A stretch of 31,688 nucleotides of DNA, taken from the NCBI RefSeq assembly GCF_051058965.1, contig NZ_CP183924.1; one strand, 5' to 3'. The notes beneath the pieces are model-generated. The model was not told the DNA's origin. It ran no database searches and saw nothing but the letters and a program-made list of their open reading frames with translations. The DNA comes from Corallococcus exiguus (GTDB lineage: Bacteria > Myxococcota > Myxococcia > Myxococcales > Myxococcaceae). Below, piece by piece: positions 2,652 to 20,983 of the stretch (position 1 is its first letter; each line of letters begins with the position of its first letter). The position numbers were made by a program, and so were the translations under genes.

Positions 2652-3734
2652 ATGTTTCGAATCGAGATGCTTCCGGCGCACCACGGGGACTGCCTGCTGC
2701 TGAGCTACGGGGAGGAGGCCCGCCCCCGGCGCATCCTCATCGACGGCGGAACCCCGTCCTCCCTGCCCCTGCTGCGCAAGCGCCTCGAGCGGATTCCCGC
2801 TGGCGAGCGGCACTTCGAGCTCCTCGTCATCACCCACATCGACGACGACCACATCGGCGGCGTCCTGAAGCTGCTCCAGCAAACCGACCTGGGCATCACG
2901 TGGGGCGACGTCTGGTTCAATGGGTGGAAGCACCTCATTCCCCAGGCACCGGTCCCCAAGCTGCGAGGCTGGCTCAGTGCCAGGCAGGGCGAGGACCTGT
3001 CCGAGCTGCTCGTGCGGCTGGACCTCCCGTGGAACAAGGCCTTCGATGAGGCCACGATTGTCATCCCCGACAGCGGGCCGCTGCCCGTGCTTGAGCTGCC
3101 CGGCAAGCTCCGGCTGACCCTGCTCTCGCCCACCCGCGAGCGGCTGGAAAAGCTGGACCGGGAGTGGACCGACACCCTCATGCGCCAGGGCATCATCCCG
3201 GGCGAGGCCGCGGCTCAGGCCCGGCCCACGCGGCGCTGGCTGGGCGGCGATATCGAACTGGCGGGGTATGACCTGAAGACGTTCCGCTCGGACACCTCGG
3301 TGGCCAACGGCAGCAGCATCGCGCTGCTGGCGGAGTACGAGGGCCGCCGCTGCCTGCTCACGGGAGATGCCTTCGCCCCCGTCCTGGCCGCGAGCCTCCA
3401 GCGCCACCCCGCTTTCGATGAGCGCACCGGCAAGCTGGCGGTGGACGCCACCAAGCTGCCCCATCATGGCAGCAGCGCGAATATCAGCCCCGACCTGCTC
3501 GGCCTGCTCTCCTGCGGCCGTTACCTCATCTCGACGAATGGTGACGTGTTCGAGCACCCGGACGTCGAGGCCGTGGGGCGAGTCATCACCCAGGGCGGGT
3601 CCTCAGCCGAGCTGTTCTTCAACTACCGCGCTGAGACCACCCGGGTCTGGGAGCGGGCCTCGATGCAGCGCAGGTATGGGTACCGGGCACGCTACCCGGA
3701 CGATGCTGACTCCGGCATCGTGCTCGACCTCTGA
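2652..3734 (+). CDS. MBL-fold metallo-hydrolase (ComEC-type H-x-D-x-D-H variant motif), putative nuclease or hydrolase effector
   Basis: 360-aa ORF with GGAGG 8 nt upstream of the ATG. MLPAHHGDCLLLSY...ILIDGG...LLVITHIDDDHIGGV is the beta-lactamase-fold N-terminal sheet plus metal-binding motif 2. Here that motif reads HIDDDH, not the canonical HxHxDH. Its stop lies 15 nt before the CHAT start. Confidence 0.85.
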   Translation: MFRIEMLPAHHGDCLLLSYGEEARPRRILIDGGTPSSLPLLRKRLERIPAGERHFELLVITHIDDDHIGGVLKLLQQTDLGITWGDVWFNGWKHLIPQAPVPKLRGWLSARQGEDLSELLVRLDLPWNKAFDEATIVIPDSGPLPVLELPGKLRLTLLSPTRERLEKLDREWTDTLMRQGIIPGEAAAQARPTRRWLGGDIELAGYDLKTFRSDTSVANGSSIALLAEYEGRRCLLTGDAFAPVLAASLQRHPAFDERTGKLAVDATKLPHHGSSANISPDLLGLLSCGRYLISTNGDVFEHPDVEAVGRVITQGGSSAELFFNYRAETTRVWERASMQRRYGYRARYPDDADSGIVLDL

Positions 3735-3749
3735 CCCCAGCCGTCCCTG

Positions 3750-5735
3750 GTGAGGCCCATGCGAACCCTGCGCACCATCACGCTCGAGTTGCTCCGGCAC
3801 GGTCCCCCGCACAACCAACTCCTCTCCCCGCTCACACCCTACCTCGCGCTGTGCGGCGGCCACGGCGCGCAGACGCTCTATCTGCCTTTCGAGCACCGGG
3901 AGTTCCAGCTCCGCCTGCGCACGCTTCGCTCCATCGCGGCGACCGCCGACGCGGATGAGTCCCGTCGCGCCTACCTGTGCGAGGTGGGCCAGCGACTCTC
4001 CGAGCTCATGGGGGGCATCCCCGGCCTCATCGCGGGCCTGGGCGTGGAACCCCGGGAGCCGGAGGGGCTGATCCACCTGCAGCTCGTCACCTCCGCGGCG
4101 GAGCTGGCCCTGCTGCCCTTCGAAGCGGTGCTCTCCCCCAAGGGGGCGCCCGGGGAGGGCCAGCCCCTGGCACTGCAGACGGACCTGCCCGTGAGCATCA
4201 CGCGGCAGGTGCGGCGCCCCACTTCCGAGAGCGTGCCCTGGCCCACGCGGCCGCGAATCCTGTTCGCCATCGCCGCGCCGGACGGCCTGGAGGTCCCAGC
4301 GGAGCAGCACGAGAAGGCACTGCGCGAGGCCATCGCCCCCTGGGTGTGGCCTTCCGGGGAGGGCTCCGCCGGGGACAACTCGGGCGAGCTGCTGACAGTG
4401 TTGCGGAACGCGAGCCTGGAAAAGCTGCGCAAGGCGTGCGAGGAGCGGGAGTATACCCACGTGCACCTGCTGGCCCACGGCAAGCCCCTGCCGGGCCTCT
4501 GGAATGAACGCTTCGGCCTCATCCTCCACGACGACGCGCAATCCCAGAACGAGCGCGTCGTCCCAGGAGAGCTGCTGGCCACGGCGCTGCGTGGCCACAC
4601 CCGAGGCGTGAAGGGACGGCTGTCCCACCCCTCGGTTGTCACCATCGCGAGCTGCGACAGCGCGAACCGGGGCTCTGTCATCGAGCCTGCGGGCAGCCTC
4701 GCCCACGCACTGCATGAAGCCGGCATTCCCTTCGTCATCGCCTCGCAGAACCCACTCACCGATAACGGTTCGGTGGTGATGACGAGCGCGCTCTACACCC
4801 AGCTCCTCTGGGGAGCGGACCCCCGCGTCGTGCTACACGACGTCCGGCAGCAACTGCGGTTGCACGACGAGCCCGTGCACGACTGGGCGAGCCTGGTCGC
4901 CTACGCCGCCTTCCCTGCGGACTTCGACGCGCAACTGCGGCGCACGCGCATTCAGAGTGCCATCGACGCAGTGAAGGCCACGCTGAGTCGCGGAGAACGC
5001 AGCCTCTCTGGCGGCGCGGCTTCTCCCGAGGTCCTCCAGCAGGCGCGGGAGGATCTGGAGCAGACCAAGCAGCGGCTCGAAGCCGCAAGCCCCACCGGGA
5101 GCGATGCGAACGCGCACGAGCTCCGGGCGGAAATCCAGGGGCTGTGTGGAAGCATTGACAAGCAGCTCGCCCAATTCCTCGACCGGGGCCTCCCCTCGGA
5201 GCCCGGAGGCTCATCCGAGGCGGAGCGCAAGGCGCTGCTCGCGCGGGCGAAGGCGCATTACTGGCGCGGCCTCCTGGAGAGTCCCAGCTCGCACTGGCAG
5301 GCCACCCAGTACCTCGCCCTCTGCGGGGTGCTGGAGGGCAGCATCCCCAGGGAGCAGTATGCGTATGCCTGCCAGGTGGCGAGGTTTCCGCGAGACACCG
5401 GCACGTTGAACGAACGTATCTGGGCGCTCAGCAGCCTCGCGGAGCTCAAGCTTCTGAGTGCCCTACTGCCCGGAGCGGATCCCCGGAAGGCGGTACGGCG
5501 GGCGAAGCGCTACGTCCGGAAGCTGCTGCGGGCCTCGACGCCGGGCTCCTTCGAGGTGGTCTCCACGCGCCGCCAGTTCGAGCATTACACGACGTGGTGG
5601 AAGTCGTGGTGCCCGCGGCTCGCGGAGCCGGCCATGCAGATCCTGGAGGAGTTCCAGCAAGTCACCGAACCGCCCCCGGCCGCACAGGATGCGGGACCGG
5701 AGGTGCCTCCCGAGGAGCGCAAGCCCCGCACCTGA
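3750..5735 (+). CDS. CHAT domain (caspase-like) protease with a C-terminal helical/TPR-like region
   Basis: 661-aa ORF. ELALLPFEAV, then the histidine block YTHVHLLAHGKP (about 4458..4481), then the cysteine block VVTIASCDSANRG (about 4650..4658). These give the His/Cys dyad in the order and spacing typical of CHAT. The C-terminal 250 aa are helical (AKAHYWRGLLESPSSHWQATQYLALCG). Confidence 0.85.
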   Translation: MRPMRTLRTITLELLRHGPPHNQLLSPLTPYLALCGGHGAQTLYLPFEHREFQLRLRTLRSIAATADADESRRAYLCEVGQRLSELMGGIPGLIAGLGVEPREPEGLIHLQLVTSAAELALLPFEAVLSPKGAPGEGQPLALQTDLPVSITRQVRRPTSESVPWPTRPRILFAIAAPDGLEVPAEQHEKALREAIAPWVWPSGEGSAGDNSGELLTVLRNASLEKLRKACEEREYTHVHLLAHGKPLPGLWNERFGLILHDDAQSQNERVVPGELLATALRGHTRGVKGRLSHPSVVTIASCDSANRGSVIEPAGSLAHALHEAGIPFVIASQNPLTDNGSVVMTSALYTQLLWGADPRVVLHDVRQQLRLHDEPVHDWASLVAYAAFPADFDAQLRRTRIQSAIDAVKATLSRGERSLSGGAASPEVLQQAREDLEQTKQRLEAASPTGSDANAHELRAEIQGLCGSIDKQLAQFLDRGLPSEPGGSSEAERKALLARAKAHYWRGLLESPSSHWQATQYLALCGVLEGSIPREQYAYACQVARFPRDTGTLNERIWALSSLAELKLLSALLPGADPRKAVRRAKRYVRKLLRASTPGSFEVVSTRRQFEHYTTWWKSWCPRLAEPAMQILEEFQQVTEPPPAAQDAGPEVPPEERKPRT

Positions 5736-5832
5736 AGCGGGCACCGCGCGGGGAGCTGGGAAAACTCCGACGTGCCTGCGGCCGGCAGGGCCACGACGAG
5801 GGCCATGAGGGCATCATCCTTCCGCCCCTGGC

Positions 5833-6063
5833 GGACATGAGCGCGTCCATCAGCGCCGTGGGCGAGTGCTCCCCGTCATCCAGGGGGGAGGAGTCGAGGA
5901 AGGCCAGACCCGAATCGCCACCGAGTGCTTGGTGCAGGGCTTCAGCCTGTGGACGGCTCGCATCTCGCGCGTAGGAGATGAAGACGGAATGGAAGCGCGG
6001 AGGGGTCACTTCCGATGGATGTCCCACCTCACTCCTTGAATCCAGCGGAACCTGGGTGGCCAT
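5833..6063 (-). pseudogene. TIR domain remnant (N-terminal ~55 aa of a TIR fold only, degenerate afterwards)
   Basis: Minus-strand ORF 5662..6063 contains RFHSVFISYARDASRPQAEALHQALGGDSGLAFLDSSPLDDGEHSPTALMDALMSAR. This gives the start strand FISYARD, alphaA, and a FLD...L..GE loop of a TIR, but then degenerates into RMMPSWPSSWPCRPQARR and runs into the 3' end of the CHAT gene. I read it as a truncated or frameshifted TIR gene fragment. Confidence 0.4.
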
Positions 6064-6154
6064 ATTGAACCCACCGGCCAGCCAGGTTCAACAAGGCACT
6101 GGCATGCATTCCGCTCGCGGAATGCGCGTCAGCCCCGAAGGATATTCCGCCCCC

Positions 6155-9100
6155 ATGGACACCGACAGAAAGACCCTTTTCCTCAGCGGAACGCGTCGGG
6201 ACCTGAAGCCCTTCTTCCTGGCCGCGAAGCGGGCCTTCGAGGAAGAACTGCCTGGCTATCAGGTGGTGACGATGGAGAGCCTGACTTCGGAGGACATCAC
6301 CAGCGAACGGTGGAGCCACCGCGAGGCCGCCACACGAGACCTGTTCGTCGGGCTCATTGGCCGGTATTTTGGCACCATCCGGGGAGAAGGCCCCTCGCTG
6401 ACAGAGCAGGAGTACGACGCAGCCGGGCGTGCTGGCGTCCACCGGCTGATGTTCCTGACGAATGCAGGCGAACCGGACGTCATCGCAAGCCAGGACGACA
6501 GTGCCCGGCGCCGGCTGGAGGAGTTCCGTGCGCGGATCCAGACCATCGTCTGCAAGGAGATCTCCACTCCCGAAGAGTTCGCCACCTCAGCCGTTCAGGC
6601 GGTCCGGGAGTGGGAACGCCGGACCCTGCACGGGCTGCTGATGTCGGCGAAGGAGTTCGCCAACTCTCCCGAGTTCTCCTCCCCAGACAGCCTGATGAGC
6701 CATGCCCATGCCTACATTGATCCGGGCGCGCCGGGGCGGGCCGTGGAGGAGTTCCTCGCCTCCCAGCAGCGCATCCTGGTGCTGCATGGCGCCTGGGGGC
6801 GCGGCAAGTCGCGAGTGCTGTTCGAGAGCAGCCGACGCGAACTTCCCATGGAGCTGAGATTCTTGAAGCGGGACGAGGAGCTCTCACATCAGCGGCTCAA
6901 GGGAGTGTCTGGCGAGCGCTATGCGCTGGTGGTGGATGATGTGCACCAGCGCTCCAACGACCAACTGAGCGCCCTGCTGCTCTTCCTCCAGAACCGGGCT
7001 CCGGAGGTGAAGCTCATTGTCACGACGCGAACGAACCGGCGGCAGGAGTTCGAGGAACGGCTTCGCGGGCAACGCTTCGCCTCCAGAGTGATCCGCCGTT
7101 TCGAGGTTCCTCTGCTGAGCGACAAGGAACAGCGGCAACTCATCCAGGCCATCCTGGGTCGCAAGGACGAAGAGCTCGCCTACAGGCTGGCGAAGCGCAC
7201 CCGAGGAAACGCGCTGGCCACGGTTCTCGCGGCCCGGAGCATCCGGAATGGGGCAAAAGTCCTCGGTGAGATCGAAGGTGAGGACTTCGAGGATTCCATC
7301 ATCGAAGGCTTCTTCGGCCTCCTGCTTCAGCAGGCTGGAAATAGTGAGGATCGACACCAGCATCTCAAGCAGCTCATGAAGCTGCTCGCCGTCGTGGGAC
7401 CGTTCCGCCCCGGCAACGCGGAGCAGATGGACGCCCTGACCGGGTTCCTGAAAACTCATCCGGATCGCCTGTCCAACGACCTTGATGCACTTGAGGTCGC
7501 AGGGCTCATCTCCCGGCACGGTGGGCTGGTTCGCGTCCCCGTGGATGCCGTCGCCGAGCACCTCGTGGTTGACGCCGCGGTGAACTCACGTGGCGAGTCG
7601 ACGCGCTACATCGAGCGGGTCATGAACGAGCTCGCCCGTCCCTTCCTGGGAAACATCCTCCGCAATCTCGCGGCGGCGGACTGGGACGTGGCGTCCCCCA
7701 AGAGCGTTGCGAGCGTGACGCGTGGGGTGTGGCACGTCCTCCCGACGCTGTTCGAGCGCCTGCCCTACGTGCAGCAGGAAGGCATGCTCGAGGCCGTGGC
7801 GGACATCGCACCGCGGTACCCGCCCGCCGCCCTGAGCTTCGCGGAGTGGGTCGTCGAATCGGGACCGCACCTGATGGCGCGAGAGGGGCCCTACCTGGAC
7901 TTGATGAGGAGCATCGTGCGGCGCCATGTCACCCGGCTGCTCAGAAGCGTGCTCAACGAGCCGTTGTGCGTATCACGGGCGTGCGACCTGCTGTGGAAGT
8001 GGGCGGAGCCCGAGTCCCCCGACAGCAATGGGTGGCCGGAGAACGCGGAGCACATCCTGTCGGAGGCGGGCAAGTACCGGTGGACGAGATCCATTCCGTC
8101 ATATGAGGCATTCGTTACCTGGGCTGCGTCGCGCGGTGACGGCGAGCGGAGGATCCCGACTCCTCGGCTGGCGAAGTACCTGCGACCGCTTCTCCACCAC
8201 GAAGTGGAGCACAGTTGGTCAGACGGTGAGACCTTCACGCTCTCGGAGATGGGCCTGCCGTATGCGCCTTTCTCCGCACTGCGGAAGCGTGTGATCGACC
8301 TGCTCATTCACCTCGCCAGCGAGGGTGGAATCGAGGACACCCATCGAGCACTAGTGGCGCTGGGGGATGCGCTTTCGGAGCCACGGGGCGCCTTCGGCAG
8401 GAAGGTCACAGACGAAGAACGGAGTGCGTGGGCTCCGGAGCAGCAGTACGTTCTGGAACGGTTGAGAACATTCCGTGGCAAACGGCGTAATCGTGTCGTC
8501 GACCTGTGCATCGTGGAGGAGATCGAGTGGTTGGCGAAACATGCCTCGGTGTCCTCCATTCGCGCCCTCGCGTGGGACTTCCTCAATGAACTCCAAGAGG
8601 CACTGACCGGCACGCTCGAACTGGCACTCGTCGCGAGATGGAAGCTGGGCGAAACGCAGGAGGTAGGCGCCAGGAGGATTGAGGGCCTTGTCCGCGCAGC
8701 GGCCCAGCAACTCATTGAACCTCTTGTGCCTCCCCAGGAGGCGCTGGAAGAGCTGAGAAGGGTTTCCCTGGAGCTCGTCCAGGCAGGAAAAAATCCAAGA
8801 GTCGTCAACCTCTTCGAGGCAGTCGCACGGACAAGCCCGGAGCATGGAGGCATCTGGAGCCGAGTGCTGCTGAGCCAGCCCGGGCACCTCCTCCGGCCCT
8901 ACGCTCACGTGCTTGCCCGAGGCCTCCTGCGTCCCTCTCCCGAGGAAGGAAAGGCGCTCTTCGTCAGCATCCTCGATGATGGAAGCGCGGACCTGCTACG
9001 AAACCTCAGCCTTTGGAGGCTCGGTGGCGACGTCTTCGATGAGAAGACCCTCGCCGTCCATCTGAACCGGCTCATGCGTCACCCGGATGCCCGTGTGCGT

Positions 9101-9955
9101 GAGGAGGCTTTCCACCAGATTCGGGGCCTCGATGAGTTGCCCGCTGGCGAGCGGGCCCGACTGCTCCTGGACTATCCGTTGGCTGAATTCCCAGGCTCGA
9201 CCAAGGACTGGGCTGCGGCCGTTGATAACGGCTTCTATGCCCTGTACGGGCATGCCGAGTTGGAGCGGCTCGCAGTCCAGTTGAGAAGCCCGCCCAAGCT
9301 GGAGTACTGGGGGTTGAAGCTCTTGGAGCGGCTCGCCGGGGATGTTCCCGCCGCCGCGGCGGACACCCTCCTCGCGCGAGTCCAGGATCCCGCGGTGGAT
9401 GCACTCGAACCTGGCTCTCACGAATTTCCCGTGCTTGCCAGGCTCCCGGCTGCCGAGCGTCAACGCGCCCTGTACACGCTGGGCGAGCTTTTTGAGCACG
9501 AGAACCCGCACACACGGTTCCACGCCAGGCGTTTCTTCTCCCTGCTCCATCGGAGCGATCCGGCTTCTGCCAGCGTGGTCCGGAGTCGCTGGCTCGAATC
9601 AGGAACGCCTTCCGATGTCGAACGAGCGCTGGGAAGCTTCGATGCCGCCGAACCTGAAGAGCTGTTCGACCATGAGGCTGACGTCACCGCCCTGCTGCGT
9701 GCTGCCGTGAGCCTGGGCCAGGAATCCCTGGAGAACGCCATGGCCATCCTGACCGGTGTCGCGATTCACGGAGAACGGCAGGGCAGCCCGGGCGAGCCCT
9801 TCCCGCGCGACGTCGCCATCCGCGATAGGGCACGCGGGCTTGCGGAGAAGTACGCACAGGGAACGGTGGAGGGGAATTTCTATCGCGAGGTCGCGAAGTC
9901 CATGGACAACGCGATTCAGCGCCGCATGGAGAGGGACGCGGAGGAGCACGTTTGA
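6155..9955 (+). CDS. DUF4062 - STAND (NB-ARC-like) P-loop NTPase - HEAT/ARM repeat protein
   Basis: The ORF is open from ATG 5978 (1325 aa). The recognisable DUF4062 domain begins at ATG 6155: MDTDRKTLFLSGTRRDLKPFFLAAKRAFE...TMESL...LIGRYFGTI...SLTEQEYDAA...LMFLTN. A GAAGGA lies upstream of 6155, while the GGAG before 5978 directly abuts the ATG, so I favour 6155 as the start. Walker A ILVLHGAWGRGKS, Walker B YALVVDDVHQ, and KLIVTTRTN (the hhhTTR of NB-ARC). The remaining 900 aa are helical repeats of HEAT type (LMRHPDARVREEAFHQIRGL, HENPHTRFHARRFFSLL). The stop TGA at 9953..9955 overlaps the TTG that opens the next ORF. Confidence 0.8.
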   Translation: MDTDRKTLFLSGTRRDLKPFFLAAKRAFEEELPGYQVVTMESLTSEDITSERWSHREAATRDLFVGLIGRYFGTIRGEGPSLTEQEYDAAGRAGVHRLMFLTNAGEPDVIASQDDSARRRLEEFRARIQTIVCKEISTPEEFATSAVQAVREWERRTLHGLLMSAKEFANSPEFSSPDSLMSHAHAYIDPGAPGRAVEEFLASQQRILVLHGAWGRGKSRVLFESSRRELPMELRFLKRDEELSHQRLKGVSGERYALVVDDVHQRSNDQLSALLLFLQNRAPEVKLIVTTRTNRRQEFEERLRGQRFASRVIRRFEVPLLSDKEQRQLIQAILGRKDEELAYRLAKRTRGNALATVLAARSIRNGAKVLGEIEGEDFEDSIIEGFFGLLLQQAGNSEDRHQHLKQLMKLLAVVGPFRPGNAEQMDALTGFLKTHPDRLSNDLDALEVAGLISRHGGLVRVPVDAVAEHLVVDAAVNSRGESTRYIERVMNELARPFLGNILRNLAAADWDVASPKSVASVTRGVWHVLPTLFERLPYVQQEGMLEAVADIAPRYPPAALSFAEWVVESGPHLMAREGPYLDLMRSIVRRHVTRLLRSVLNEPLCVSRACDLLWKWAEPESPDSNGWPENAEHILSEAGKYRWTRSIPSYEAFVTWAASRGDGERRIPTPRLAKYLRPLLHHEVEHSWSDGETFTLSEMGLPYAPFSALRKRVIDLLIHLASEGGIEDTHRALVALGDALSEPRGAFGRKVTDEERSAWAPEQQYVLERLRTFRGKRRNRVVDLCIVEEIEWLAKHASVSSIRALAWDFLNELQEALTGTLELALVARWKLGETQEVGARRIEGLVRAAAQQLIEPLVPPQEALEELRRVSLELVQAGKNPRVVNLFEAVARTSPEHGGIWSRVLLSQPGHLLRPYAHVLARGLLRPSPEEGKALFVSILDDGSADLLRNLSLWRLGGDVFDEKTLAVHLNRLMRHPDARVREEAFHQIRGLDELPAGERARLLLDYPLAEFPGSTKDWAAAVDNGFYALYGHAELERLAVQLRSPPKLEYWGLKLLERLAGDVPAAAADTLLARVQDPAVDALEPGSHEFPVLARLPAAERQRALYTLGELFEHENPHTRFHARRFFSLLHRSDPASASVVRSRWLESGTPSDVERALGSFDAAEPEELFDHEADVTALLRAAVSLGQESLENAMAILTGVAIHGERQGSPGEPFPRDVAIRDRARGLAEKYAQGTVEGNFYREVAKSMDNAIQRRMERDAEEHV

Positions 9956-10008
9956 CGCCTGAGCCGGTATCCGCAATACGTTCGCCACGGCGCACGGGAG
10001 GAGCAGCG

Positions 10009-10833
10009 ATGCGGGTGTTCATCAGTTGGTCCGGGGAGAGGAGCAGGGCCGTGGCCACGGCCTTGAAGACGTGGCTGTCGGACGTCTTCCACGATGTGGA
10101 GCCCTGGATGTCCGAGCACGACATCGACGCGGGCATGCAGTGGGGCACCCATCTCAGCCAGCAACTGGAGGCCGCGAACTTCGGCATTCTCTGCCTGACG
10201 CCGGACAACCTCGCCTCGCCGTGGCTGCTCTTCGAGGCCGGCGCGCTCTCCAAGTTCATTAAGTCGGCACGTGTCGTCCCCTACAGGCTGGAGCTCAAGG
10301 CGACGGACGTCAGCTTGCCCCTCGCTCAGTTCCAGGGGGTTGATGCGGATGAGTTGGGGACGCTCAAGCTCCTGCAGAGCCTCAACGGCACCCGTGAGGC
10401 TCTACTCACTGACGAACGACTCAAGAAGCTGTTTGACAAATGGTGGCCCGACCTGAAGCTTGCCCTGCAAGCCGTTCCCCCTTCCAGAGGAGTGCCCGCC
10501 CCCAAACGGACCGACAGGGCCTTGCTGGAAGAGATCCTTCAGTTGGTCCGACAGCAGGCCCAGGCATCCACCGATACGCCAATACACAATGAAGACACGA
10601 TCTACGGCCCTCCTCCGACTGACACCTCAGCCGAGTCCCAAAGAGTGCTGAGTGTGCCCTTGCCGCCGAACGAGCCCGGGAACTTGCGCGGGATGCGCGT
10701 ACGCCACGCGCAGTTTGGCCTTGGGACCATTGCTGACGTGGAAGGAGCGGGAGCCAATGCCAAGGTCACGGTGAGGTTCAGTGGGCCAGTGGGTCTCAAA
10801 AGAGTTATCGCCCAATTCCTTCAGCCCGCCTGA
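10009..10833 (+). CDS. TIR domain protein (TIR_2-like) with a small C-terminal domain
   Basis: The track ORF opens at TTG 9952. The better start is ATG 10009, preceded by GGGAGGAG at -7: MRVFISWSGERSRAVATALKTWL...GILCLTPDNLASPWLLFEAGAL. FISWSGE.S and SPW..FEaGal are TIR_2 signatures, and the conserved Glu sits in FEAG. The C-terminal 90 aa (RGMRVRHAQFGLGTIADVEG...VRFSG) are unassigned. Confidence 0.85.
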   Translation: MRVFISWSGERSRAVATALKTWLSDVFHDVEPWMSEHDIDAGMQWGTHLSQQLEAANFGILCLTPDNLASPWLLFEAGALSKFIKSARVVPYRLELKATDVSLPLAQFQGVDADELGTLKLLQSLNGTREALLTDERLKKLFDKWWPDLKLALQAVPPSRGVPAPKRTDRALLEEILQLVRQQAQASTDTPIHNEDTIYGPPPTDTSAESQRVLSVPLPPNEPGNLRGMRVRHAQFGLGTIADVEGAGANAKVTVRFSGPVGLKRVIAQFLQPA

Positions 10834-10885: not shown

Positions 10886-13800
10886 CTACGAAGCGGCCTT
10901 CTCCTCTGACGGATGCTGGTTCGAAACCACTTCGCGTCTGGCTTGCAGTGCGGTCATCAGCCAGTACAGCTCGTCGACGACCTCAACGCTCCACTCCGAG
11001 GTGCGCTCTGCGATGGCATGGCGCAACACTCCGATGCGTACTGGGCGAACCGCGCTACGTGAACGCATCATCCGGATGAATCGGGCACGATCCTCTCTCG
11101 ACTCGAATCGCTCCAGCCACTGGATGATTTCTTCCGGCTCCAGCGCGTTTGCGCCTATCTGCTCGACCTCTTTCCAGAGCTTGCGTCTGCGAAGACGCGC
11201 CGGAAGGCCACGCTTGAACCACACGAATTTAAGCACACACACGACAGCTATCCACACGCCGGAAACCACTATCGCAAGATCCCATTGGCGTAAAAAGAAC
11301 CACCATGCCAACGATAGCATCAATCCGACACCCGGCAGGACGACAATCAAAATCCGCCCCCAAAGCCGCCATACAGAGTTTTGAACCAACCCAAGCCAAA
11401 ACGGATACAAGAACCAGGCTGTCGTCCACTTCCCCTTGCGGCAGGCGAGATAGACATAGGCATCCCAAGAAGCCACTGCGAATGCCATCGAGATAGCCAA
11501 GGACCCGGGGATTCCAACCAGTGCCGCACTGCACAGAAACGCCATGCCCTCCAGTCCCGCGCGCATTGCAACCATGAAGTCAAAGTTCTCCGGATCTTCC
11601 CCGGGGGCGCTCCCCTTTGCTGATTCTCTGTGCCTGTGCCAAGGCAACTGAACCAACGCCCAGAAGACGGACATGATAAGCCCAAACGGCCTGGTGCTTA
11701 CTCCCGGCACGATCGAGGCAGGAGGCTCGTATTGGAGGGACAGCACCAACGTGACCAGCAACCATCCGATGGACAAGCAGCTCCGCCCCCACGCAGCCCG
11801 TCGGAGCAATTGAACAAGCTGGATGAACCCACCGGAATCCGGCAGACGTGAGACCTCGGCCAACGTGCGGTGCCAGAGCCGCGACAACTGGCCTGACCTT
11901 TCACGCTCCACGAGCATGCCTCTCACCGCATCGGCGATTGGCTCGGGCAGACGCCGAAGCCAGGAGGCCTGCACGTAGGCAACATCTGCCAGCACCTGAC
12001 TCCGGCTGTCGAATGCCGAAATCAGCAAGCCCTCGAGCTCCGGCGCCGGAACGAGCCCTGCCACACTGAGCGCGTCACGCTGATCCACCAAGCTGCCATT
12101 GTTGTATGCGAGGTGGACCAACTCTCCAATCGTATCGCGGAGCGAAGTGGGAACTTCATGGAGGCGCTCGCGCAAGCCTTCCTGGAGAAGCTCGAGTAGA
12201 TGCCGGACGCCATCCGGCCACACTCTGTAGATTCCTCCTTCCAGCGCGTCCTCCTCCTGCGGCTCCGGGGCCGTCGAGGTCTGCTCTTCTGGCCCCTCAT
12301 CATCCGACTGCAAGAGCGCAAGCATATCGTCGAGCGTCGCTTCCGCCTGCGCGATTAGTTCCTCGAAATAGGGGGAACTCGCGGTCTGCAGCAGTACCAC
12401 GCACGTCTCGCGCCAACGGTAATCGGTGAACAACAGCTCCGTGGAGATACGTGCGGGCTCGGCTTGAACCCAGCGAGTGGCGAGGAACTCCTGGAACCGG
12501 CGGTGCACGAAGGCGAACGACGGCTGCCCTTCAGGGGCTGTCCCGCGCTTCGCGAGCCTGAGCTCCCCCAAGACCTCCAGGACGTCGGAGAGCGACTCGG
12601 CTGGCAGAGAACGGCGTCGGAGCGAATCCGCCAGTTCTCCATGTATCGGCTCCATTCCCAGGCCCGTATCCGCCGACATGCAGAAGGCCAGGGCCTCCGC
12701 CGCCTTCCGGACGTCACCCGGCGTGAGCCCGCGTGTCCTGAGCTCTCCCGCGTGATGGGACAGCCGCTGGTCGAGAAATCTGTTGAAGACCTCGTGCTGA
12801 TGGCCGGGAGGCTTGTTCTCCTGCGCGAACCACGCGCAAAGCATCGCCAACAGGAGCGGATTCGTTCCGAAGACCGGCAGCCCCTCCGCCGACGAATCCA
12901 GCCAGCCCAGCAACTGCTCCACCTTCCGGCCATAGTGGAGGTAGCGCTTCGTCAGCCTGGCACGCCGCGCATCATCGAGCGGGAGGATCCGGTATTTTGT
13001 CCACCCGAACCGGGTGGGCCCGCGAAAGTGGCGCGACCCCACCATGGCACTGCACCCAGGGGTCCGGACGATGAAGTCGTTCAGCGCATATGCGTAATCC
13101 CGGACCGCATTGTCGTCTCCGGTCGAGGACAATACGGCCGGTATCTCGTCGAAGGCATCAAAGAGGAAGAGCCACTGCCGGTGACTTGCAGGTCTGCCGA
13201 GCAGGTCACGAAGGAGCGCTCCATCTGCTCCCAACGAATCAAGAACGAACTGTCGGACAGCGTCAGCGTCGGGTCTGGCCTTCGGGCGAAAGCCGCGAAG
13301 TGGGAGATAGAGCACGATCCTGAAGGGTTGACGGCCTCTCTTCCGGACAGTCTCCATCGCCTCCTTGAGGAGTTCCCGCGCGACCTGTCTCAGGACAACG
13401 CTCTTTCCTGCCCCTGGAGCACCTTCGAGGATGATGAACCGCTCCCGAGAGCGGACCAACGCCCGCGCAAGCCGCTGCTCCCTGCGCAGGCGGCGTTCTT
13501 CGAACAGCCGAGGGAGCAGGGTCTTCTGCTCCTCGGACTCCACCTCGGCTTCGAGGTCGGTGAAGTGAGACTCGCGCCAGGACACCTCCACGGGAGCGGA
13601 CCAATTCTCTTCCCAATCCAACCGCCGGATGCGTTCCGCGTGGGATTGGAGGAACTGGAGCATTTCCGGCGGAGACTGCTTCTGGGCCTCCTGCTTGGAC
13701 ACGAGCCCACGGATCCATTGGGTGAGCTCGGCGAGTTTTCCTTGGATTTCCTCCGGACTCCGCCCGCTCCAAAGCGGGCTCCCGCCGTTCGGCCAGAGAT

Positions 13801-14143
13801 TGCGCGCTTCGAGCCCGTCAACCGCCTTCCAGTCGCAAGGTGAGAGTAGCACTGGGACGAGCCGAAGCGCTTCCTGACGGCTGCGCTCCAGCAGTCGTGG
13901 CAGCTCGTACTTCTGGATGAATTCCGAGCCCAAGAAGTTCTCGGAGATGAGCAGGACCGCGATGCTCGCGCACTCGATAGCCTCGCGAATCGCAGGACGC
14001 CAAACGTCGCCTGGATCCATCCGCTGATCGACCCATATCCGCGCGAGGCCCTGACTCTCCAGGACCCGAAGCTGTCTTACGACCTTGTCGAGTGCCTCCG
14101 AGTCCTGGCGTGAGTAGCTGATGAAGATGAGTGGCGAGTCCAC
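10886..14143 (-). CDS. TIR - NACHT NTPase - C-terminal 6-helix transmembrane domain protein (membrane-anchored NLR-like)
   Basis: The ORF is open to 14614, but its first 157 codons are low-complexity and antisense to an IS3 orfA. The TIR begins at a GTG (complement of 14141..14143): VDSPLIFISYSRQDSEALDKVV...VLLISENFLGSEFIQKYELP. NACHT motifs follow: ILEGAPGAGKSVV (Walker A), LFLFDAFDEI (Walker B), AMVGSRHF, GTNPLLLAML, and FAFVHRRFQEFLATRWV (the F.H...QEFLAA box). The last 300 aa carry six hydrophobic segments (CLSIGWLLVTLVLSL, FGLIMSVFWALVQL, MAFLCSAALVGIPGSLAISMAFAV, TTAWFLYPFWLGLV, ILIVVLPGVGLMLSLAWWFF, LAIVVSGVWIAVVCVLKFVWF) and a basic tail. The start codon is uncertain. Confidence 0.8.
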   Translation of the reverse strand: MDSPLIFISYSRQDSEALDKVVRQLRVLESQGLARIWVDQRMDPGDVWRPAIREAIECASIAVLLISENFLGSEFIQKYELPRLLERSRQEALRLVPVLLSPCDWKAVDGLEARNLWPNGGSPLWSGRSPEEIQGKLAELTQWIRGLVSKQEAQKQSPPEMLQFLQSHAERIRRLDWEENWSAPVEVSWRESHFTDLEAEVESEEQKTLLPRLFEERRLRREQRLARALVRSRERFIILEGAPGAGKSVVLRQVARELLKEAMETVRKRGRQPFRIVLYLPLRGFRPKARPDADAVRQFVLDSLGADGALLRDLLGRPASHRQWLFLFDAFDEIPAVLSSTGDDNAVRDYAYALNDFIVRTPGCSAMVGSRHFRGPTRFGWTKYRILPLDDARRARLTKRYLHYGRKVEQLLGWLDSSAEGLPVFGTNPLLLAMLCAWFAQENKPPGHQHEVFNRFLDQRLSHHAGELRTRGLTPGDVRKAAEALAFCMSADTGLGMEPIHGELADSLRRRSLPAESLSDVLEVLGELRLAKRGTAPEGQPSFAFVHRRFQEFLATRWVQAEPARISTELLFTDYRWRETCVVLLQTASSPYFEELIAQAEATLDDMLALLQSDDEGPEEQTSTAPEPQEEDALEGGIYRVWPDGVRHLLELLQEGLRERLHEVPTSLRDTIGELVHLAYNNGSLVDQRDALSVAGLVPAPELEGLLISAFDSRSQVLADVAYVQASWLRRLPEPIADAVRGMLVERERSGQLSRLWHRTLAEVSRLPDSGGFIQLVQLLRRAAWGRSCLSIGWLLVTLVLSLQYEPPASIVPGVSTRPFGLIMSVFWALVQLPWHRHRESAKGSAPGEDPENFDFMVAMRAGLEGMAFLCSAALVGIPGSLAISMAFAVASWDAYVYLACRKGKWTTAWFLYPFWLGLVQNSVWRLWGRILIVVLPGVGLMLSLAWWFFLRQWDLAIVVSGVWIAVVCVLKFVWFKRGLPARLRRRKLWKEVEQIGANALEPEEIIQWLERFESREDRARFIRMMRSRSAVRPVRIGVLRHAIAERTSEWSVEVVDELYWLMTALQARREVVSNQHPSEEKAAS

Positions 14144-14285
14144 GGTGCCGCACAGCGTACATTGTTCCGCGGCCTTCGGTGCACGCCAGCGCCGGGAACG
14201 GTGGAGGGGAGCTTCTATCGCTGGGTCGCGAAGTTTAGCGTCACCCACTTCTGTGGACGCCCCCGATGTGATGGAAGGGTGTTCG

Positions 14286-14597
14286 ATGTCGGAGCGCGAG
14301 AAGAAGAGGCGGCCGCGACGTAGCTTCAGCCCGGAGTTCAAGTCCGGGCCGGTGAAGTTGGTGCTGGAGGAGAGCAAGTCCGTTGCGGAGGTGGCGAGGG
14401 ACTTGGACCTGACGGAGACGGCCTTCCGTCGGTGGGTGGAGCAGGTCCGAACGGACCGGGGCCAGGGCAAGCCAGGCGCCCGCACCAGCGAGGACCGGGT
14501 GGAACACTCCCAGTTGCGCAAGCGCGTGCGGCAGCTGGAAATGGAGAAGGAGCGCCTAAAAACTGCGGCGGCCTTCTTCGCGAAGGAGATGAAGTGA
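14286..14597 (+). CDS. IS3-family transposase OrfA (HTH + leucine-zipper)
   Basis: [53 protein letters not shown]...[28 protein letters not shown] is the conserved IS3/IS911 OrfA pattern (R..YS.EFK...V.......VA.......L..WV). GGAAGGG lies 7 nt upstream of the ATG at 14286. The track ORF extends upstream to 14121 with no domain support. Confidence 0.75.
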
Positions 14598-14893
14598 AGT
14601 TCCGCTTCATCCACGTGGAGAATGCATCCCTGTCAGCCGCCTTCCTTTGTCGCCAACTGGGTGTCTCCCGTTCGGACTACTACGCCTGGGCGAAGCGGCC
14701 CGAGTCTCAGCGGCGTCAGCGCGACCGCGAGCTGTCCGAGGAAGTGGCGGCTATTCACCGGCAAAGCCGAGGTACCTACGGCAGCCCCCGTGTCCATGCC
14801 GAGCTGCGCGCGCGGGGCCGCCGCGGCTCGTCATCCACCTGGCTCCGTCGCGAACCAGTTCTTCTCGACACTCGCCTCGGACGTCGAGGCTGA
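14432..14893 (+). pseudogene. IS3-family transposase OrfB, N-terminal fragment (HTH_21 plus the start of the integrase core, then degenerate)
   Basis: In the -1 frame relative to orfA: [75 protein letters not shown] matches the OrfB N-terminus. After ARG it reads [13 protein letters not shown], not the expected V.HKRV.RLM motif, and no DDE core follows. Confidence 0.6.
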
Positions 14894-14937: not shown

Positions 14938-17900
14938 TCAGTCGAGCGCGGCCCGCACGTCCCAGATACGCACGACGTGGTCTCCTCCTGCCGTGAGGAT
15001 GCGTCCGCCATCTGGACTGAATCCAACCGAGGTCACCCCACCGGACCGACTGGAAAGGCCCACACGAAGCTCGCGCGCCGCGAGGTCCCTGATGAGCGTT
15101 GTCCCGTCCTCCTGCCCCACCACACAGTGCCGCCCGTCCGGGCTGAAGCTGGCCGCTGTCAACGCCCTCGTCGTTCGAGACGACATGACGATCCCCCCGG
15201 TGTCGGCATTCCAGATGTTCAGGTTGCCATCCGCACCTGCTGTCACAATGCGTGTTCCGTCCGGACTGAAGCTGGCCGCATGGACCCGGCCTTGGTGTCC
15301 CGAGAGGCGGGCCAGATTCCTCCCCGAGCGGACCTCCCAGAGAAGCACGCTGCCACCGTCGCCTCCGGTGACGAGGCGCTGGCCGTCAGGACGGAAACCC
15401 GCCGTGAACACCGCCTCGGTGTGTCCCGCGAACTCCCCGACGTGCTGTCCGGAGGTCGCGTCCCAAAGATGCACCCCGCCATCACCACTCGCGGTGATGA
15501 TGCGCATCCCATCTGGGCTGAAGCTGGCGGCGTAGACCGTATCCAGAGGACCGTGCAGGCGACCTACAGCTTTCCCAGAGGCGACGTCATAGAGCCAGGC
15601 CCACCCAGTCAGGCCCGCCGCGATGATGCGCTGGCCGTTGGGACTGAAGCTGACAGCGAATACTCCACCCGCCGGCTCTCCGGTCATGAGTACCAGGGAG
15701 GCACCGGTCCCCGCATCCCAGAGTTCCACGGAGTTACCATCGTTCCCGGTGACGACCCGCCCACCATCCGGGCTAAAGCTCGCAACGAGGGCATCAGTCG
15801 CCAGCTCAGTGACGAGCCTGGGCTGGCCCCCTCGCTTCCAGGTACGAAGCGCAGAAAGTGAGCCCAGCAACCGCTCCATCTGCTGCGCTGTTTCCTCCGC
15901 CTGGGCATGGCCGATGGAGCGTCGATATTTGACGAGGACTTCCAGCAGTTTCCTCACGCCCTCCGGAATGCCTTGCATTGCTCGCATCTGGCCGAGCCCC
16001 CATGAAGCCAGCGCGATGCCTCGGTCGTCACGCCATGAGCGAGCGACCTCAAGCGCTTCCTCATAGTGCGCCGCAGCCAGACGCGGTCCGTGTTGCTCCT
16101 CCGCGAGCGAGGCAGAGGCAAGCAGGGCATCCACTTCGAGTTGGATGTCCCCTTCGATTGCTGCCTTCGCTCGGGCGCTCCGAAAACCCTCGGCAGCCGC
16201 ATCCTTCCTGCCATCCTGCCGGTCGAGACGAGCAATCATGTAGTCGGCCTCGGCGCTCACCTCCCCATGGGCAAGCTCTTGCTCGGCGATCCTTAGTAGC
16301 AGCGAGTGGGCCTCATCCCAGTCGCCCTGTTCCGACAGGAACCGCACCAGCTTGACGCCCCCCCCTGCCGACGACCCGGGTTTGAAACCCACCCCCATAA
16401 AGGCCTCGCGGCACGACTTCACCGCCTCCTTCCCTTGTCCGAGCTGTGACTGAGCGACGGCTAATTCGAGAAGGAAGAACGCTTGTTCCAAACCGTACAC
16501 ACGGGTGTGCGATGATTCCACCAGAGGCTTGAGCAATTGCTCCCTCTCGCGTGGCGTCCAGCGCAGGCGGAATAGCCACGGGACTTGCATCACCGGAGCG
16601 CGGAGGAGCGACGGCACTCTGTCGGGAGGTCCATGTTGAATCCACCATCTGAGCGCCCTGTCGATGTTCAGGCGCTCCTCGTCGAGCGCCATGATAGCCG
16701 CAGCTCGCTCCTGCCCCTGGGGCTTATATCTTTCAGTAAGGCCGGTGAAGAACTCCAGGAAGTATGTGGCATGCCGCAGGGCCGCCTTCTTCAGGTCAGG
16801 AAACTCCTGCTCAGGCTCCGTAATCAGCCGCACCGGCCACCACAACGTATAGCGACCCGCTCCAGCGACACGAATCAGGCCCGCCTCTAGCATTCGCTGG
16901 GCTGTCAGCGGCCCCCAGTACCCTTCACTCGGCTCCTTTGCAGGAGGGCTCGTCTTGTCGAGTACCACCACATCGGCGGCTCGCAGGTCAAAGCTCTCCG
17001 GAAACACGGCGAGCCAGCGGGCACGATTCAACAGTGCGGCATAGAGCCCGATTCGAGTTCCCGATCTCACCCTGGCCAGCACCGCGCCAATTTCGCGCAG
17101 AGGTGTGGCGAGAAAATGGCAAATTTCGGCGAGCTCAACTGCCACGTCACCCACCCCTGGTGCGACTTCGGTCAGCAGGTGTACCGCGGCGAGGGGCGTA
17201 AGCGGCGCGAGCCTTATTGACTCGAACCTTTCTTTGATGAGGAGCGGCGCACGGGAAGTCACCATGAGGAACCCGGAGCCCCCCTGAGGGCGCAGCTGGG
17301 CGATTTCCTCCGAGATGTCACTGGAGCCCCAGCGCCACGTATCTACGTCTTCCAAGACGAGCGCCAGCCGTCGCTCGGACAGCAGATAGTGGAAGTGCGA
17401 GAGCCAGTCCCTCCGAGAACCGACCTGCTCTGGCGCAATCGCCTCAACCACCCTCCGTGCCACAACCTCTGCAGACATCACCGGACCGTTCGGAAGTCTT
17501 TCGATCTGAAAGCACCCATAGGGAAAATCGTGAGCTATCCGTGCGAGCACCTGCCGGGCCCATTGCGTCTTGCCGACGCCGGGCTCGCCCGTGACGTTGA
17601 TAAAAACAACTCCACCGCGAATCAACCTCCCGAGCAAATCGGCCTGCTGCTCGTGCAGCATGGGGCCATCCTCAGGCGGTGGAAGCAGGAGCAACGCAGC
17701 CGGCTCGGCGGGGGCGATGAGGTACTCATCTCCCTGCAACGTGCGCAGGCGCAGAAAGCCGGACACGAAGGGAAGCTGGAGGTGCTCTTGCGGGCGGAAC
17801 TCGAGTCTTCGCCATCGCGTCTCGTGGAGGGGAAACTCGTTCAGCAGCACAAGCAGGTGCTGAATAGTGAGTTGCTCGTTCTCGGGCCTGGCCGTGAGCC

Positions 17901-19053
17901 ATTGCCTCGCGGGCACCAGCGAGATCATCCGCTCCCAGGGAGGCTCTTTGGACGCTCGCTCCGGGAGTACGTACACCGGAATGAAGAGGACTTCCGAGCG
18001 CCGCGTCTTTAGCTGTTCCTCAATGGAGGAGACCTCGTCGGCGAAAGCGCGGGATTCGAGCGCACTTTCGGAGACCAGCAGGACGAAGACATCCGCCTGG
18101 ACGAGCCAGCCCTCGATTTGTGCCCGCCACGAAGCCCCCGGCTTGAATTGCAGCGCTTCGAGCCCCGGGAAGACCTGGTGTTGCGTCCGCTGCAGCCCTT
18201 CCCGGATGGCATGGGCCAACTGCGGCACGGGGCCCCCCGAGGCCACGTAGCTGATGAAGATGCTCCGTGGATGCGGTGACGCCGCCTCCCCCTCTCCGCC
18301 ATCCGCCATGTCCAGCACCAGCGGCTCGGTTCGGGGGACCTCGATGGTGGTCTCCGCTCGGCCGGCCACCGGGCCCAACTCCACGAAGCCAGGGAACAGC
18401 CTCACGCCCACCTGGACTCGCTCCAGCCCCTGTGTGGCCATTCCCGCCATCCACTCGGGCACGGCCCCTGATGGAGGTGAAGCTGGCAGCAGATCTCCCC
18501 GGAGACGCGCCCGTGCCGCGACCGCCAGCAGACGCCCCTCGTCCAGCTCTCGCAGCTCGGAAGGAATGCGAGCACTGGCGCCCGCGGCCCAGTGCGCCAG
18601 GCTCGTCTTCTCGTTGCCGAAGAGCTCCGCCACCGCCGAACGCAGAAGCCAGCGCGCTCGCACAGGAGCGTTGGCGTCACCGCTGAACTGAAGGTAGTTG
18701 AGTTCTTCTTCCAGGCGCAGCGCCGGTGAGAGCCCCACATGGGCCTCCCTGGTGATGCGCCAGGCCTCGTCGTAGCGCTCACCTCCCCGCGCCACGAGCC
18801 TTTCGCGCAGGATTGCCCCCACGCCCTGTACGAACACGAAGCCTTCGGGGCCGCGGAAAGCGACGAGGCGGCCCAGCCACAGGTCGGCCTCGACGGACGG
18901 CTTCGCTCCAGGCAGCAACTCCAGGCGCAGCCGACGCAGCAGCAGGGAATCCACCCGGACCGCGAACGAGGCCAAGCATGCCAGCTCGAAGGCCTGGGGC
19001 TGCTCCTGAGCGGTCTCCTCGACCAGCAGACGCGCGGCCATGAGCGTCGTCAT
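14938..19053 (-). CDS. Third component of a MoxR-vWA-beta-propeller ternary system: N-terminal ~110-aa adaptor-like domain - TIR - NB-ARC/STAND NTPase - TPR - 7-bladed WD40 propeller
   Basis: 1371-aa ORF with ATG at 19053 and GGAGGAGG 8 nt upstream, inside the end of the vWA gene. TIR: RSIFISYVASGG...VFVLLVSESALESRAFADEV. NTPase: VVFINVTGEPGVGKTQWARQV (Walker A), LALVLEDVD (Walker B), LMVTSRAPLL. A helical TPR-like middle follows. The C-terminus has seven SFSPDG...W(D/N) WD40 units (FSPDGGRVVTGNDGNSVELWD ... FSPDGGRILTAGGDHVVRIWD). The N-terminal MTTLMAARLLVEETAQE...LWLGRLVAFRGPEGFVFVQGV region is unassigned. Confidence 0.85.
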   Translation of the reverse strand: MTTLMAARLLVEETAQEQPQAFELACLASFAVRVDSLLLRRLRLELLPGAKPSVEADLWLGRLVAFRGPEGFVFVQGVGAILRERLVARGGERYDEAWRITREAHVGLSPALRLEEELNYLQFSGDANAPVRARWLLRSAVAELFGNEKTSLAHWAAGASARIPSELRELDEGRLLAVAARARLRGDLLPASPPSGAVPEWMAGMATQGLERVQVGVRLFPGFVELGPVAGRAETTIEVPRTEPLVLDMADGGEGEAASPHPRSIFISYVASGGPVPQLAHAIREGLQRTQHQVFPGLEALQFKPGASWRAQIEGWLVQADVFVLLVSESALESRAFADEVSSIEEQLKTRRSEVLFIPVYVLPERASKEPPWERMISLVPARQWLTARPENEQLTIQHLLVLLNEFPLHETRWRRLEFRPQEHLQLPFVSGFLRLRTLQGDEYLIAPAEPAALLLLPPPEDGPMLHEQQADLLGRLIRGGVVFINVTGEPGVGKTQWARQVLARIAHDFPYGCFQIERLPNGPVMSAEVVARRVVEAIAPEQVGSRRDWLSHFHYLLSERRLALVLEDVDTWRWGSSDISEEIAQLRPQGGSGFLMVTSRAPLLIKERFESIRLAPLTPLAAVHLLTEVAPGVGDVAVELAEICHFLATPLREIGAVLARVRSGTRIGLYAALLNRARWLAVFPESFDLRAADVVVLDKTSPPAKEPSEGYWGPLTAQRMLEAGLIRVAGAGRYTLWWPVRLITEPEQEFPDLKKAALRHATYFLEFFTGLTERYKPQGQERAAAIMALDEERLNIDRALRWWIQHGPPDRVPSLLRAPVMQVPWLFRLRWTPREREQLLKPLVESSHTRVYGLEQAFFLLELAVAQSQLGQGKEAVKSCREAFMGVGFKPGSSAGGGVKLVRFLSEQGDWDEAHSLLLRIAEQELAHGEVSAEADYMIARLDRQDGRKDAAAEGFRSARAKAAIEGDIQLEVDALLASASLAEEQHGPRLAAAHYEEALEVARSWRDDRGIALASWGLGQMRAMQGIPEGVRKLLEVLVKYRRSIGHAQAEETAQQMERLLGSLSALRTWKRGGQPRLVTELATDALVASFSPDGGRVVTGNDGNSVELWDAGTGASLVLMTGEPAGGVFAVSFSPNGQRIIAAGLTGWAWLYDVASGKAVGRLHGPLDTVYAASFSPDGMRIITASGDGGVHLWDATSGQHVGEFAGHTEAVFTAGFRPDGQRLVTGGDGGSVLLWEVRSGRNLARLSGHQGRVHAASFSPDGTRIVTAGADGNLNIWNADTGGIVMSSRTTRALTAASFSPDGRHCVVGQEDGTTLIRDLAARELRVGLSSRSGGVTSVGFSPDGGRILTAGGDHVVRIWDVRAALD

Positions 19054-19057
19054 GCGC

Positions 19058-20970: not shown

Positions 20971-20983
20971 GACTTGACGATCC

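Follow-up and report, generated by a model that had tools for sequence, protein, structure and literature searches.

The window analysed here is a stretch of 31,688 nt from Corallococcus exiguus, and our subject is a cluster of four genes within it, g1–g4 (positions 2652–10833), which an earlier inspection of the letters (the original prediction) had taken for a single four-gene defence operon. We consider it quite probable that the cluster holds three independent conflict modules that neighbour one another within an island rich in TIR genes, namely g1 together with g2, g3 alone and g4 alone. The g1–g2 pair is a member of the protease-gated metallo-beta-lactamase (MBL) pro-nuclease class, caspase-like branch. 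The g3 product is a single-gene NLR-like member of a known family, with a predicted role as an NADase effector, and g4 is a single-gene TIR protein of a large family with a variable C-terminal domain. The starts of g2, g3 and g4 were taken from database proteins identical to the window products and not from the longest open reading frames (ORFs). The features are listed below, with an arrow for each predicted cut.

2652–3734, + strand: g1, MBL-fold hydrolase of the ComEC type, 360 aa, predicted to be a latent (gated) DNA nuclease
2835–2852, + strand: metal-binding motif of g1, H62-I-D64-D-D66-H67, conserved in the family alignment
2967–2978, + strand: predicted cleavage site 1 of g1, G106-W-L108↓S109, closing the disordered loop 98–109; family motif
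3234–3245, + strand: predicted cleavage site 2 of g1, R195-W-L197↓G198, just past the disordered loop 180–193; family motif
3759–5735, + strand: g2, CHAT protease (caspase-like, clan CD) with C-terminal helical TPR-S, 658 aa
5736–6154, no strand: non-coding gap of 419 nt between the g1–g2 module and g3
6155–9955, + strand: g3, NLR-like DUF4062-STAND protein, 1266 aa, stand-alone
10009–10833, + strand: g4, TIR with a UvrD/PcrA-type Tudor domain, 274 aa, stand-alone
10690–10818, + strand: Tudor domain of g4 (aa 228–270), PcrA_UvrD_tudor profile

Locus layout and co-occurrence of the four genes

The original prediction correctly described four same-direction ORFs on the + strand (2652–3734, 3750/3759–5735, 5978/6155–9955 and 9952/10009–10833), and its domain naming of all four genes agrees with a Pfam scan. 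The genes lie less tightly together than it had proposed. By the database starts, g2 begins at ATG 3759 (identical database protein of 658 aa), g3 at nt 6155 (identical database protein of 1266 aa; 14/14 homologues align from the same Met) and g4 at ATG 10009 (identical database protein of 274 aa; this Met is also where the match to the TIR profile starts). The intergenic gaps are therefore 24 nt between g1 and g2 (not 15 nt), 419 nt between g2 and g3 and 53 nt between g3 and g4. The overlap claimed between the ATPase stop and the next ORF does not exist; it arose because that ORF had been extended back to an upstream TTG. A scan for consensus promoters and terminators gave 0 promoters and two irrelevant hairpins, with neither element in 5736–6154, but such a scan is uninformative in this 65% GC DNA. 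Rfam and tRNA scans over the whole window gave no match, and an exact-sequence look-up of g1 found no record.

The 80 best of 391 loci carrying a g2 relative were scanned with profiles of all four genes, and 84 CHAT loci other than the window were covered overall. A g3-family or close g4-family gene adjoined the module in 0/84 of these, and the four g3-family loci contained no MBL, CHAT or TIR–Tudor gene. Four-gene co-occurrence, which the original prediction had set in advance as its own test, was thus not seen in any of them; because only MBL and CHAT recur together across loci, we take g1+g2 as the conserved unit and g3 and g4 as separate. The MBL+CHAT pair is kept in four other myxobacterial loci (L030 and L081–L083). 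In the closest relatives of g2 (71–75% identity, L081–L083) it is followed by unrelated genes, and in L030, from Archangium, the g1-like MBL is divergent in orientation to CHAT. In L043 the g3 profile matched weakly (E 2e-9) some 4 kb upstream of the module, and in L010 there was one weak g4-type TIR profile match near the module, the sole such case among the loci in which CHAT is paired with a metallophosphoesterase (MPE). From the other side, the four loci of g3 homologues had no neighbour in common with the window, one of them lying directly after an ATP synthase operon, and the three contexts of g4 relatives were stand-alone, without a conserved partner. This case shows that one cannot infer a system from the mere nearness of genes in a defence island.

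The bond between the first two genes is also seen in single polypeptides. Among the closest g1 relatives are CHAT(-TPR-S)–MBL fusions, in both domain orders; one of them, P0267, shares 38% identity with g2 (aa 4–614) and 50% with g1. Because the two families are fused elsewhere, this Rosetta-stone evidence argues for functional coupling of g1 and g2. A search around the MPE–CHAT and MBL–CHAT modules for a small third gene conserved among them, of the CATASP or CanB type, found none.

The MBL–CHAT pair and its predicted gating

The g1 product matches Lactamase_B in Pfam (4e-10), LmuA (1e-69), Avs1a (3e-45) and RTasMBL (2e-43) in PADLOC, and Avs1a in NCBIfam (3.8e-65; 220 bits, under the 420-bit cut-off), and its family comprises 923 clusters (50% identity) at E<1e-30. 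Its AlphaFold2 (AF2) model has a predicted local distance difference test (pLDDT) score of 88.5, and among PDB folds the ComEC beta-lactamase-like domain 9ic4 matches it best (E 4e-12). The HxDxDH motif had been recognized correctly (H62-x-D64-x-D66-H67); indeed, H62, D64, D66, H67, N219, D239, H271 and H272 are shared by 43/43 family members. Compared with ComEC, g1 has about 75 extra residues between conserved blocks, and the only low-confidence parts of the model (pLDDT<50) are residues 98–109 and 180–193. Going by the model and the published homologues, these two insertions probably block the active site. Each leads into a copy of a single short motif of the family (n=43), which reads [DE]-x-[LF]-G at site 1 (D 24, E 10; L 33, F 7; G 40, S 2) and [DE]-x-[LMF] at site 2 (D 24, E 10; L 32, M 4, F 4), where the residue after the hydrophobic position is usually G, in a gappy part of the alignment. 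Trp precedes Leu at both sites only in g1 and its 72% relative P0256, and the two sites co-vary by lineage, GWL↓S going with RWL↓G in g1 and this relative and ESL↓G occurring twice in Sinorhizobium. From these motifs we infer that L108 and L197 are putative P1 residues at which g2 would cut.

The g2 product matches CHAT (2.7e-29) and TPR-S (1e-6) in Pfam. Its AF2 model (pLDDT 87.9) is alpha/beta to about aa 385 and then all-helical (389–633), and H240 (nt 4476–4478) and C299 (nt 4653–4655) are invariant in 54 sequences. A profile search of solved structures with the g2 family gave none by sequence; fold comparison alone gave matches, the PDB neighbours being SAVED-CHAT (8tl0), separase and the Craspase TPR-CHAT. 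Neither Pfam nor the model showed a domain for nucleotide binding (SAVED, SLOG, Macro or the like) in g2. The family has 391 relatives in a one-genome-per-species collection and spans many non-developmental phyla. The most conserved stretch of the CHAT-TPR-S family is N-terminal, with E10, R13, G15, N19, L21, L22, S23, Y28 and H46 invariant, and within it aa 20–23 of g2 read Q-L-L-S (window 3816–3827), of which L-L-S is similar to the motif predicted for the substrates (hydrophobic-Leu-Gly/Ser). One might see in this stretch, purely as speculation, a pseudo-substrate or a site of autoprocessing.

The mechanism that we propose starts from a ComEC-type MBL nuclease, g1, which would be inactive when first made and in which the two disordered insertions probably mask the active site. 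The C-terminal TPR-S of g2 would presumably detect an invader-derived or stress signal, whereupon active g2 would probably cut g1 after Leu108 and Leu197, and the freed nuclease would degrade DNA and halt the infected cell, as homology to HamM, Avs1a, VcMBL and CanC suggests. The original prediction had envisaged a cascade in which STAND activates CHAT and CHAT in turn acts on MBL and/or TIR. The step from CHAT to MBL is supported by the recurring pair, the fusions and the two-insertion form of g1, but the four-gene cascade as a whole is not supported, its other steps having no co-occurrence behind them.

The combination had seemed undescribed because the relevant papers date from 2025–2026. 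In MBL zymogens that are cut at two sites, in VcMBL at Ile133↓Ser134 and Ile232↓Ser233, cleavage yields Zn-dependent double-stranded DNA nucleases (Evans et al., bioRxiv 2025; PMC12642450). The candidate sites of g1 lie at 108 and 197 against 133 and 232 in VcMBL, and the residue predicted at P1 in g1 is a Leu that precedes Gly/Ser, as opposed to an Ile that precedes Ser in the published zymogens. In CanABC of Klebsiella aerogenes, the prototype of the canu (caspase-nuclease) loci, two insertions that contain conserved glycines gate CanC, and the CanAB caspase complex activates it (Tuck et al., Science 2025; PMC12799240). The g1–g2 pair is like canu in joining a clan CD cysteine protease to a ComEC-like MBL that has two disordered insertions and is predicted to be gated. 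However, g2 combines CHAT (PF12770) with TPR-S where CanA is a MALT1-like Peptidase_C14 with an immunoglobulin fold; no CanB-like gene lies in the 24 nt between g1 and g2 and none is conserved in the flanks; and the gene order is reversed, the nuclease gene being upstream of the protease gene here and downstream of the caspase gene in CanABC. The canu loci are themselves variable, and some contain TPR (PMC12799240). In a search of plasmids the best g1 relative was 41% identical (E 2e-96), and this and other relatives on plasmids sit in three-gene loci of a Peptidase_C14 caspase, a hypothetical protein and an MBL, a CanABC-like layout in which the link to canu is by gene layout and not by the KaeCanABC sequences.

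In its two-insertion layout and its position just upstream of a protease, g1 is also like the homologous protease-linked MBLs of AVAST (Avs1a, Avs2, Avs4), Hachiman HamMAB, Lamassu and DRT. These systems use a protease of the trypsin type that forms one protein with a STAND, Hachiman, ATP-binding cassette (ABC) or reverse transcriptase (RT) sensor, whereas g2 is CHAT-TPR-S. AVAST type 1 was considered as an assignment and rejected, given the score of g1 (220 bits against the 420-bit Avs1a cut-off) and the lack of a trypsin-like protease–STAND fusion. As a CHAT protease with an attached, presumably sensing domain, g2 resembles type III-E Craspase (TPR-CHAT/Csx29) and SAVED-CHAT, in which such a domain controls the protease; it differs from both in that there is no CRISPR, gRAMP or SAVED, the TPR-type domain is C-terminal and identity is only 10–18%. 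Placing a myxobacterial MBL+CHAT pair in the protease-gated pro-nuclease class described in 2025 is mainly of annotation value.

In the lineage to which g2 belongs the usual partner is of another kind. An MPE was found immediately upstream of CHAT-TPR-S in 76/80 loci; 1/80 had an MBL (L030) and 3/80 had neither. This MPE is a roughly 500-aa calcineurin-like enzyme encoded on the same strand, a median of 8 nt upstream of CHAT. MPE+CHAT is also the arrangement in g2 relatives at 48–52% identity (L084, L089 and L090). The MBL here is an effector swap for the lineage's normal MPE partner, and because g2 is nearer to MPE-linked CHATs (50–52%) than to other MBL-linked CHATs (38–42%), such a swap may have happened more than once. 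In its lineage's usual partner g2 is like the MPE–protease class of Evans et al. (2025), which may be this same CHAT-linked family; the window differs from MPE–protease pairs in having an MBL in place of the MPE, as do a few myxobacterial relatives. An MPE-like enzyme was named there as a protease-associated effector, without characterization (PMC12642450). A literature search on CHAT, metallophosphoesterase and anti-phage returned nothing.

The MPE has an invariant Leu pair (53/53 and 52/53), each Leu followed by Gly or Ser, which flanks an insert of 49–82 aa with a mean column identity of 31% inside against 55% elsewhere. These features suggest that the MPE, too, is a zymogen. Since paired Leu-Gly/Ser positions occur in both MPE and MBL, the same protease specificity is predicted for the two. 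We see the chances as even that MPE and MBL, as metallo-hydrolase zymogens unrelated to each other, are both gated at their paired Leu-Gly/Ser sites by one CHAT-TPR-S lineage, which is present in no fewer than 391 species; if they are, the widespread, experimentally uncharacterized MPE would be a latent effector. Proteins of about 450–525 aa with MAP3K_TRAF_bd and TPR-S domains were found near CHAT-TPR-S in 9/80 loci, mostly downstream (for example L077, 6957–8468). Such proteins also lie in L084 (1785–5120) and in L086 (11934–13388), and one directly follows a g3 homologue in Pyxidicoccus trucidator. They may be a further TPR-S-bearing component of these islands.

The single-gene proteins g3 and g4

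The g3 product consists of a DUF4062 domain (aa 9–90), a STAND NTPase, a winged helix (about 397–456) and a C-terminal region of about 800 aa. Pfam recognizes DUF4062, as the original prediction had proposed, and gives a weak STAND match (nSTAND_NTPase5); there is no PADLOC match. The nucleotide-binding motifs had also been read correctly, with Walker A GRGKS (G217-K218-S219), Walker B VVDDV and K286-LIVTT-R292 (KLIVTTR). The 'about 900 aa of HEAT repeats' were not recovered: even with the threshold relaxed to E<=10, Pfam shows neither HEAT nor ARM nor TPR in g3, and among the family members only 1/14 gives HEAT matches, which are weak. One HEAT-like unit lies near aa 940–995 and matches the designed protein 4rzp, which we take to be a helical-repeat design. 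The family comprises 14 full-length homologues, mostly myxobacterial and in unrelated contexts. DUF4062 is present in 14/14 (best E 1e-12) and nSTAND_NTPase5 in 10/14, under the Pfam cut-off, and the invariant residues include E84 and E86 (in S-L-T-E-Q-E), G215-R-G-K218 and R292.

Two 2026 preprints describe DUF4062 as a TIR-like NADase, in one case, under the name NIR, as the effector of Avs/NLR-like proteins (bioRxiv 10.64898/2026.09.04.749371) and in the other in Swarozyc, a stand-alone system (bioRxiv 10.64898/2026.05.01.722283). The TIR-like nature of DUF4062 rests on these preprints, because in our own profile–profile comparison the DUF4062 region of g3 and the TIR family of g4 showed no similarity (probability 0.4%). 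The g3 product is like DUF4062 (NIR)-STAND proteins (PsAvs2 and other NLR-like proteins) in its N-terminal DUF4062 with an invariant Glu motif, its central STAND NTPase, its long C-terminal region and, by context, its single-gene autonomy. It is unlike PsAvs2/NIR-STAND and Swarozyc in belonging to a small clade, in its weak nSTAND5 match and in a C-terminal region without a match to a known sensor. In the mechanism that we propose for g3, sensing would presumably fall to the C-terminal region and switching to the STAND NTPase, with DUF4062 as the TIR-like NADase effector. Neither g2 nor g3 would need the other, because g2 has its own TPR-S and g3 its own effector domain.

The g4 product matches TIR_2 (1e-12) and PcrA_UvrD_tudor (3.5e-9) in Pfam, and its C-terminal 60 aa are clearly homologous to the C-terminal domain of UvrD as solved in 6yi2 and 7egs (E 9e-9). 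The UvrD/PcrA-type Tudor domain binds RNA polymerase. Proteins matching g4 at E<=0.001 number 2255. Among the relatives listed (55–64% identity) the match covers the N-terminal two-thirds only, and some relatives carry other C-terminal domains (ricin lectin, cold-shock, helix-turn-helix (HTH), LamG, HEAT or Tudor). We propose that g4 acts as a lone TIR protein with an RNA-polymerase-binding type of Tudor domain at its C-terminus; this architecture points to a TIR effector that is tethered to RNA polymerase or monitors it. TIR and Tudor are joined in the same way, at 42% identity, in L091 and L092, next to ParA, HTH and HEPN genes. The PADLOC model 'TIR-TM' matches g4 (1e-59), and a literature search on that name returned nothing. 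Thoeris was rejected as an assignment, with no SIR2, SLOG or Macro in the region by Pfam or PADLOC, a g4 score of 22 bits against the 220-bit ThcB4 cut-off, and no conserved partner.

Alternative readings and the surrounding island

Several points weigh against three independent modules and against the gating proposed for the first. Cleavage of g1 by g2, Leu at P1, the nuclease activity, the anti-phage role and the occlusion of the g1 active site by the loops are all inferred. In the Archangium locus MBL and CHAT are not in an operon. The separateness of the genes rests on four g3-family and three g4-family contexts. Every myxobacterial MBL–CHAT or MPE–CHAT locus examined has TIR genes only a few genes away, which could exceed island clustering. 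Finally, with a shared strand and no terminator or promoter found between the genes, co-transcription and strain-local cross-talk are formally possible.

The most direct alternative is that the four genes are one system after all, with g3 sensing and activating g2, and g2 processing g1 and g4. The genes are adjacent on one strand, with no terminator detected between them, and a coupling to STAND sensors is frequent among the published MBL–protease modules (PMC12642450). Those systems, however, fuse the protease to STAND, and here it is fused to TPR-S; moreover, the association is found in 0/84 CHAT loci and 0/4 g3-family loci, g3 has its own DUF4062 effector domain and is 419 nt away from g2, and the g4 family is a conserved, stand-alone TIR with swapped C-terminal domains. 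We regard this as the least probable of the readings considered. Scarcely more credible is a wiring specific to this strain, in which NAD products of g3 or g4, or contact with g3, license g2 and then g1 (a sensor–NADase–protease–DNase cascade).

It is also conceivable that the genes are coupled in the manner of type IV Thoeris, with NAD-derived products of g3, g4 or the flanking TIR proteins binding g2, which would then license g1. TIR signalling is said, in the title of a 2025 paper by Rousset et al., to activate a caspase-like protease. The closeness of TIR genes to the myxobacterial MBL–CHAT and MPE–CHAT loci would fit such coupling, as would the ThsB-type TIR gene 130 nt downstream of the pair in L082 and L083. 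Against this, all-against-all clustering showed no conserved TIR neighbour in 76 MPE–CHAT loci of other phyla, myxobacterial islands are generally TIR-rich (the window has six TIR genes and a DUF4062 gene) and no SAVED, SLOG or Macro was detected in g2; we consider the coupling very unlikely. The remaining alternative leaves the pair intact and changes its purpose. Myxobacteria undergo developmental lysis, and g1–g2 might serve regulated self-destruction or DNA turnover in development or kin conflict rather than defence against phages. No phage trigger is known for g1–g2, and a weaker structural neighbour of g2 is the transmembrane anti-sigma factor DdvA (8rot, rank 46). However, CHAT-TPR-S occurs in many non-developmental phyla (391 relatives), the module lies among TIR, NLR-like and MoxR conflict genes, and homologous MBL–protease pairs have given experimental phage defence (PMC12799240, PMC12642450). 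A developmental role therefore seems to us unlikely, and we retain the reading of three modules, with g1–g2 as a gated nuclease pair.

The six TIR-domain genes and the DUF4062 gene of the window make it an unusually TIR-dense island. The other genes around the four are as follows.

440–1414, - strand: ThsB-like TIR_2 protein, flanking the four-gene cluster
1463–2407, - strand: CAP12/Pycsar-type TIR protein, PADLOC PDC-S35 match
10886–14614, - strand: TIR-NACHT NLR-like protein, 1242 aa, convergent on g4
14938–19053, - strand: TIR...WD40 beta-propeller protein, 1371 aa, in the four-gene run 14938–22201
19058–20053, - strand: 331-aa protein with no Pfam match, in the same run
20020–20970, - strand: MoxR-type AAA ATPase, Pfam bpMoxR match
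20984–22201, - strand: TIR_2 protein, in the same run
22917–24776, - strand: PMT-family glycosyltransferase, beyond the island
25353–26543, + strand: acyltransferase_3, beyond the island
26667–30182, + strand: Kelch-repeat protein, 1171 aa, beyond the island

The run at 14938–22201 looks like a MoxR–vWA–beta-propeller ternary conflict system, the namesake of bpMoxR, in which the gene of the 331-aa protein would be a putative von Willebrand factor A (vWA) gene. TIR genes of the ThsB type recur in related loci. A 128-aa ThsB-type TIR gene comes after MBL+CHAT in L082 (12099–12485) and in L083, and upstream of the g3 homologue in L088 (5842–7197) a 128-aa ThsB-type TIR gene is followed by a Peptidase_C14 caspase gene, a pair that we take to resemble type IV Thoeris. 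Glycosyltransferase and acyltransferase genes also surround the module of L082, the closest MBL+CHAT relative, and since the window has such genes too, the module may adjoin a polysaccharide locus in both genomes.

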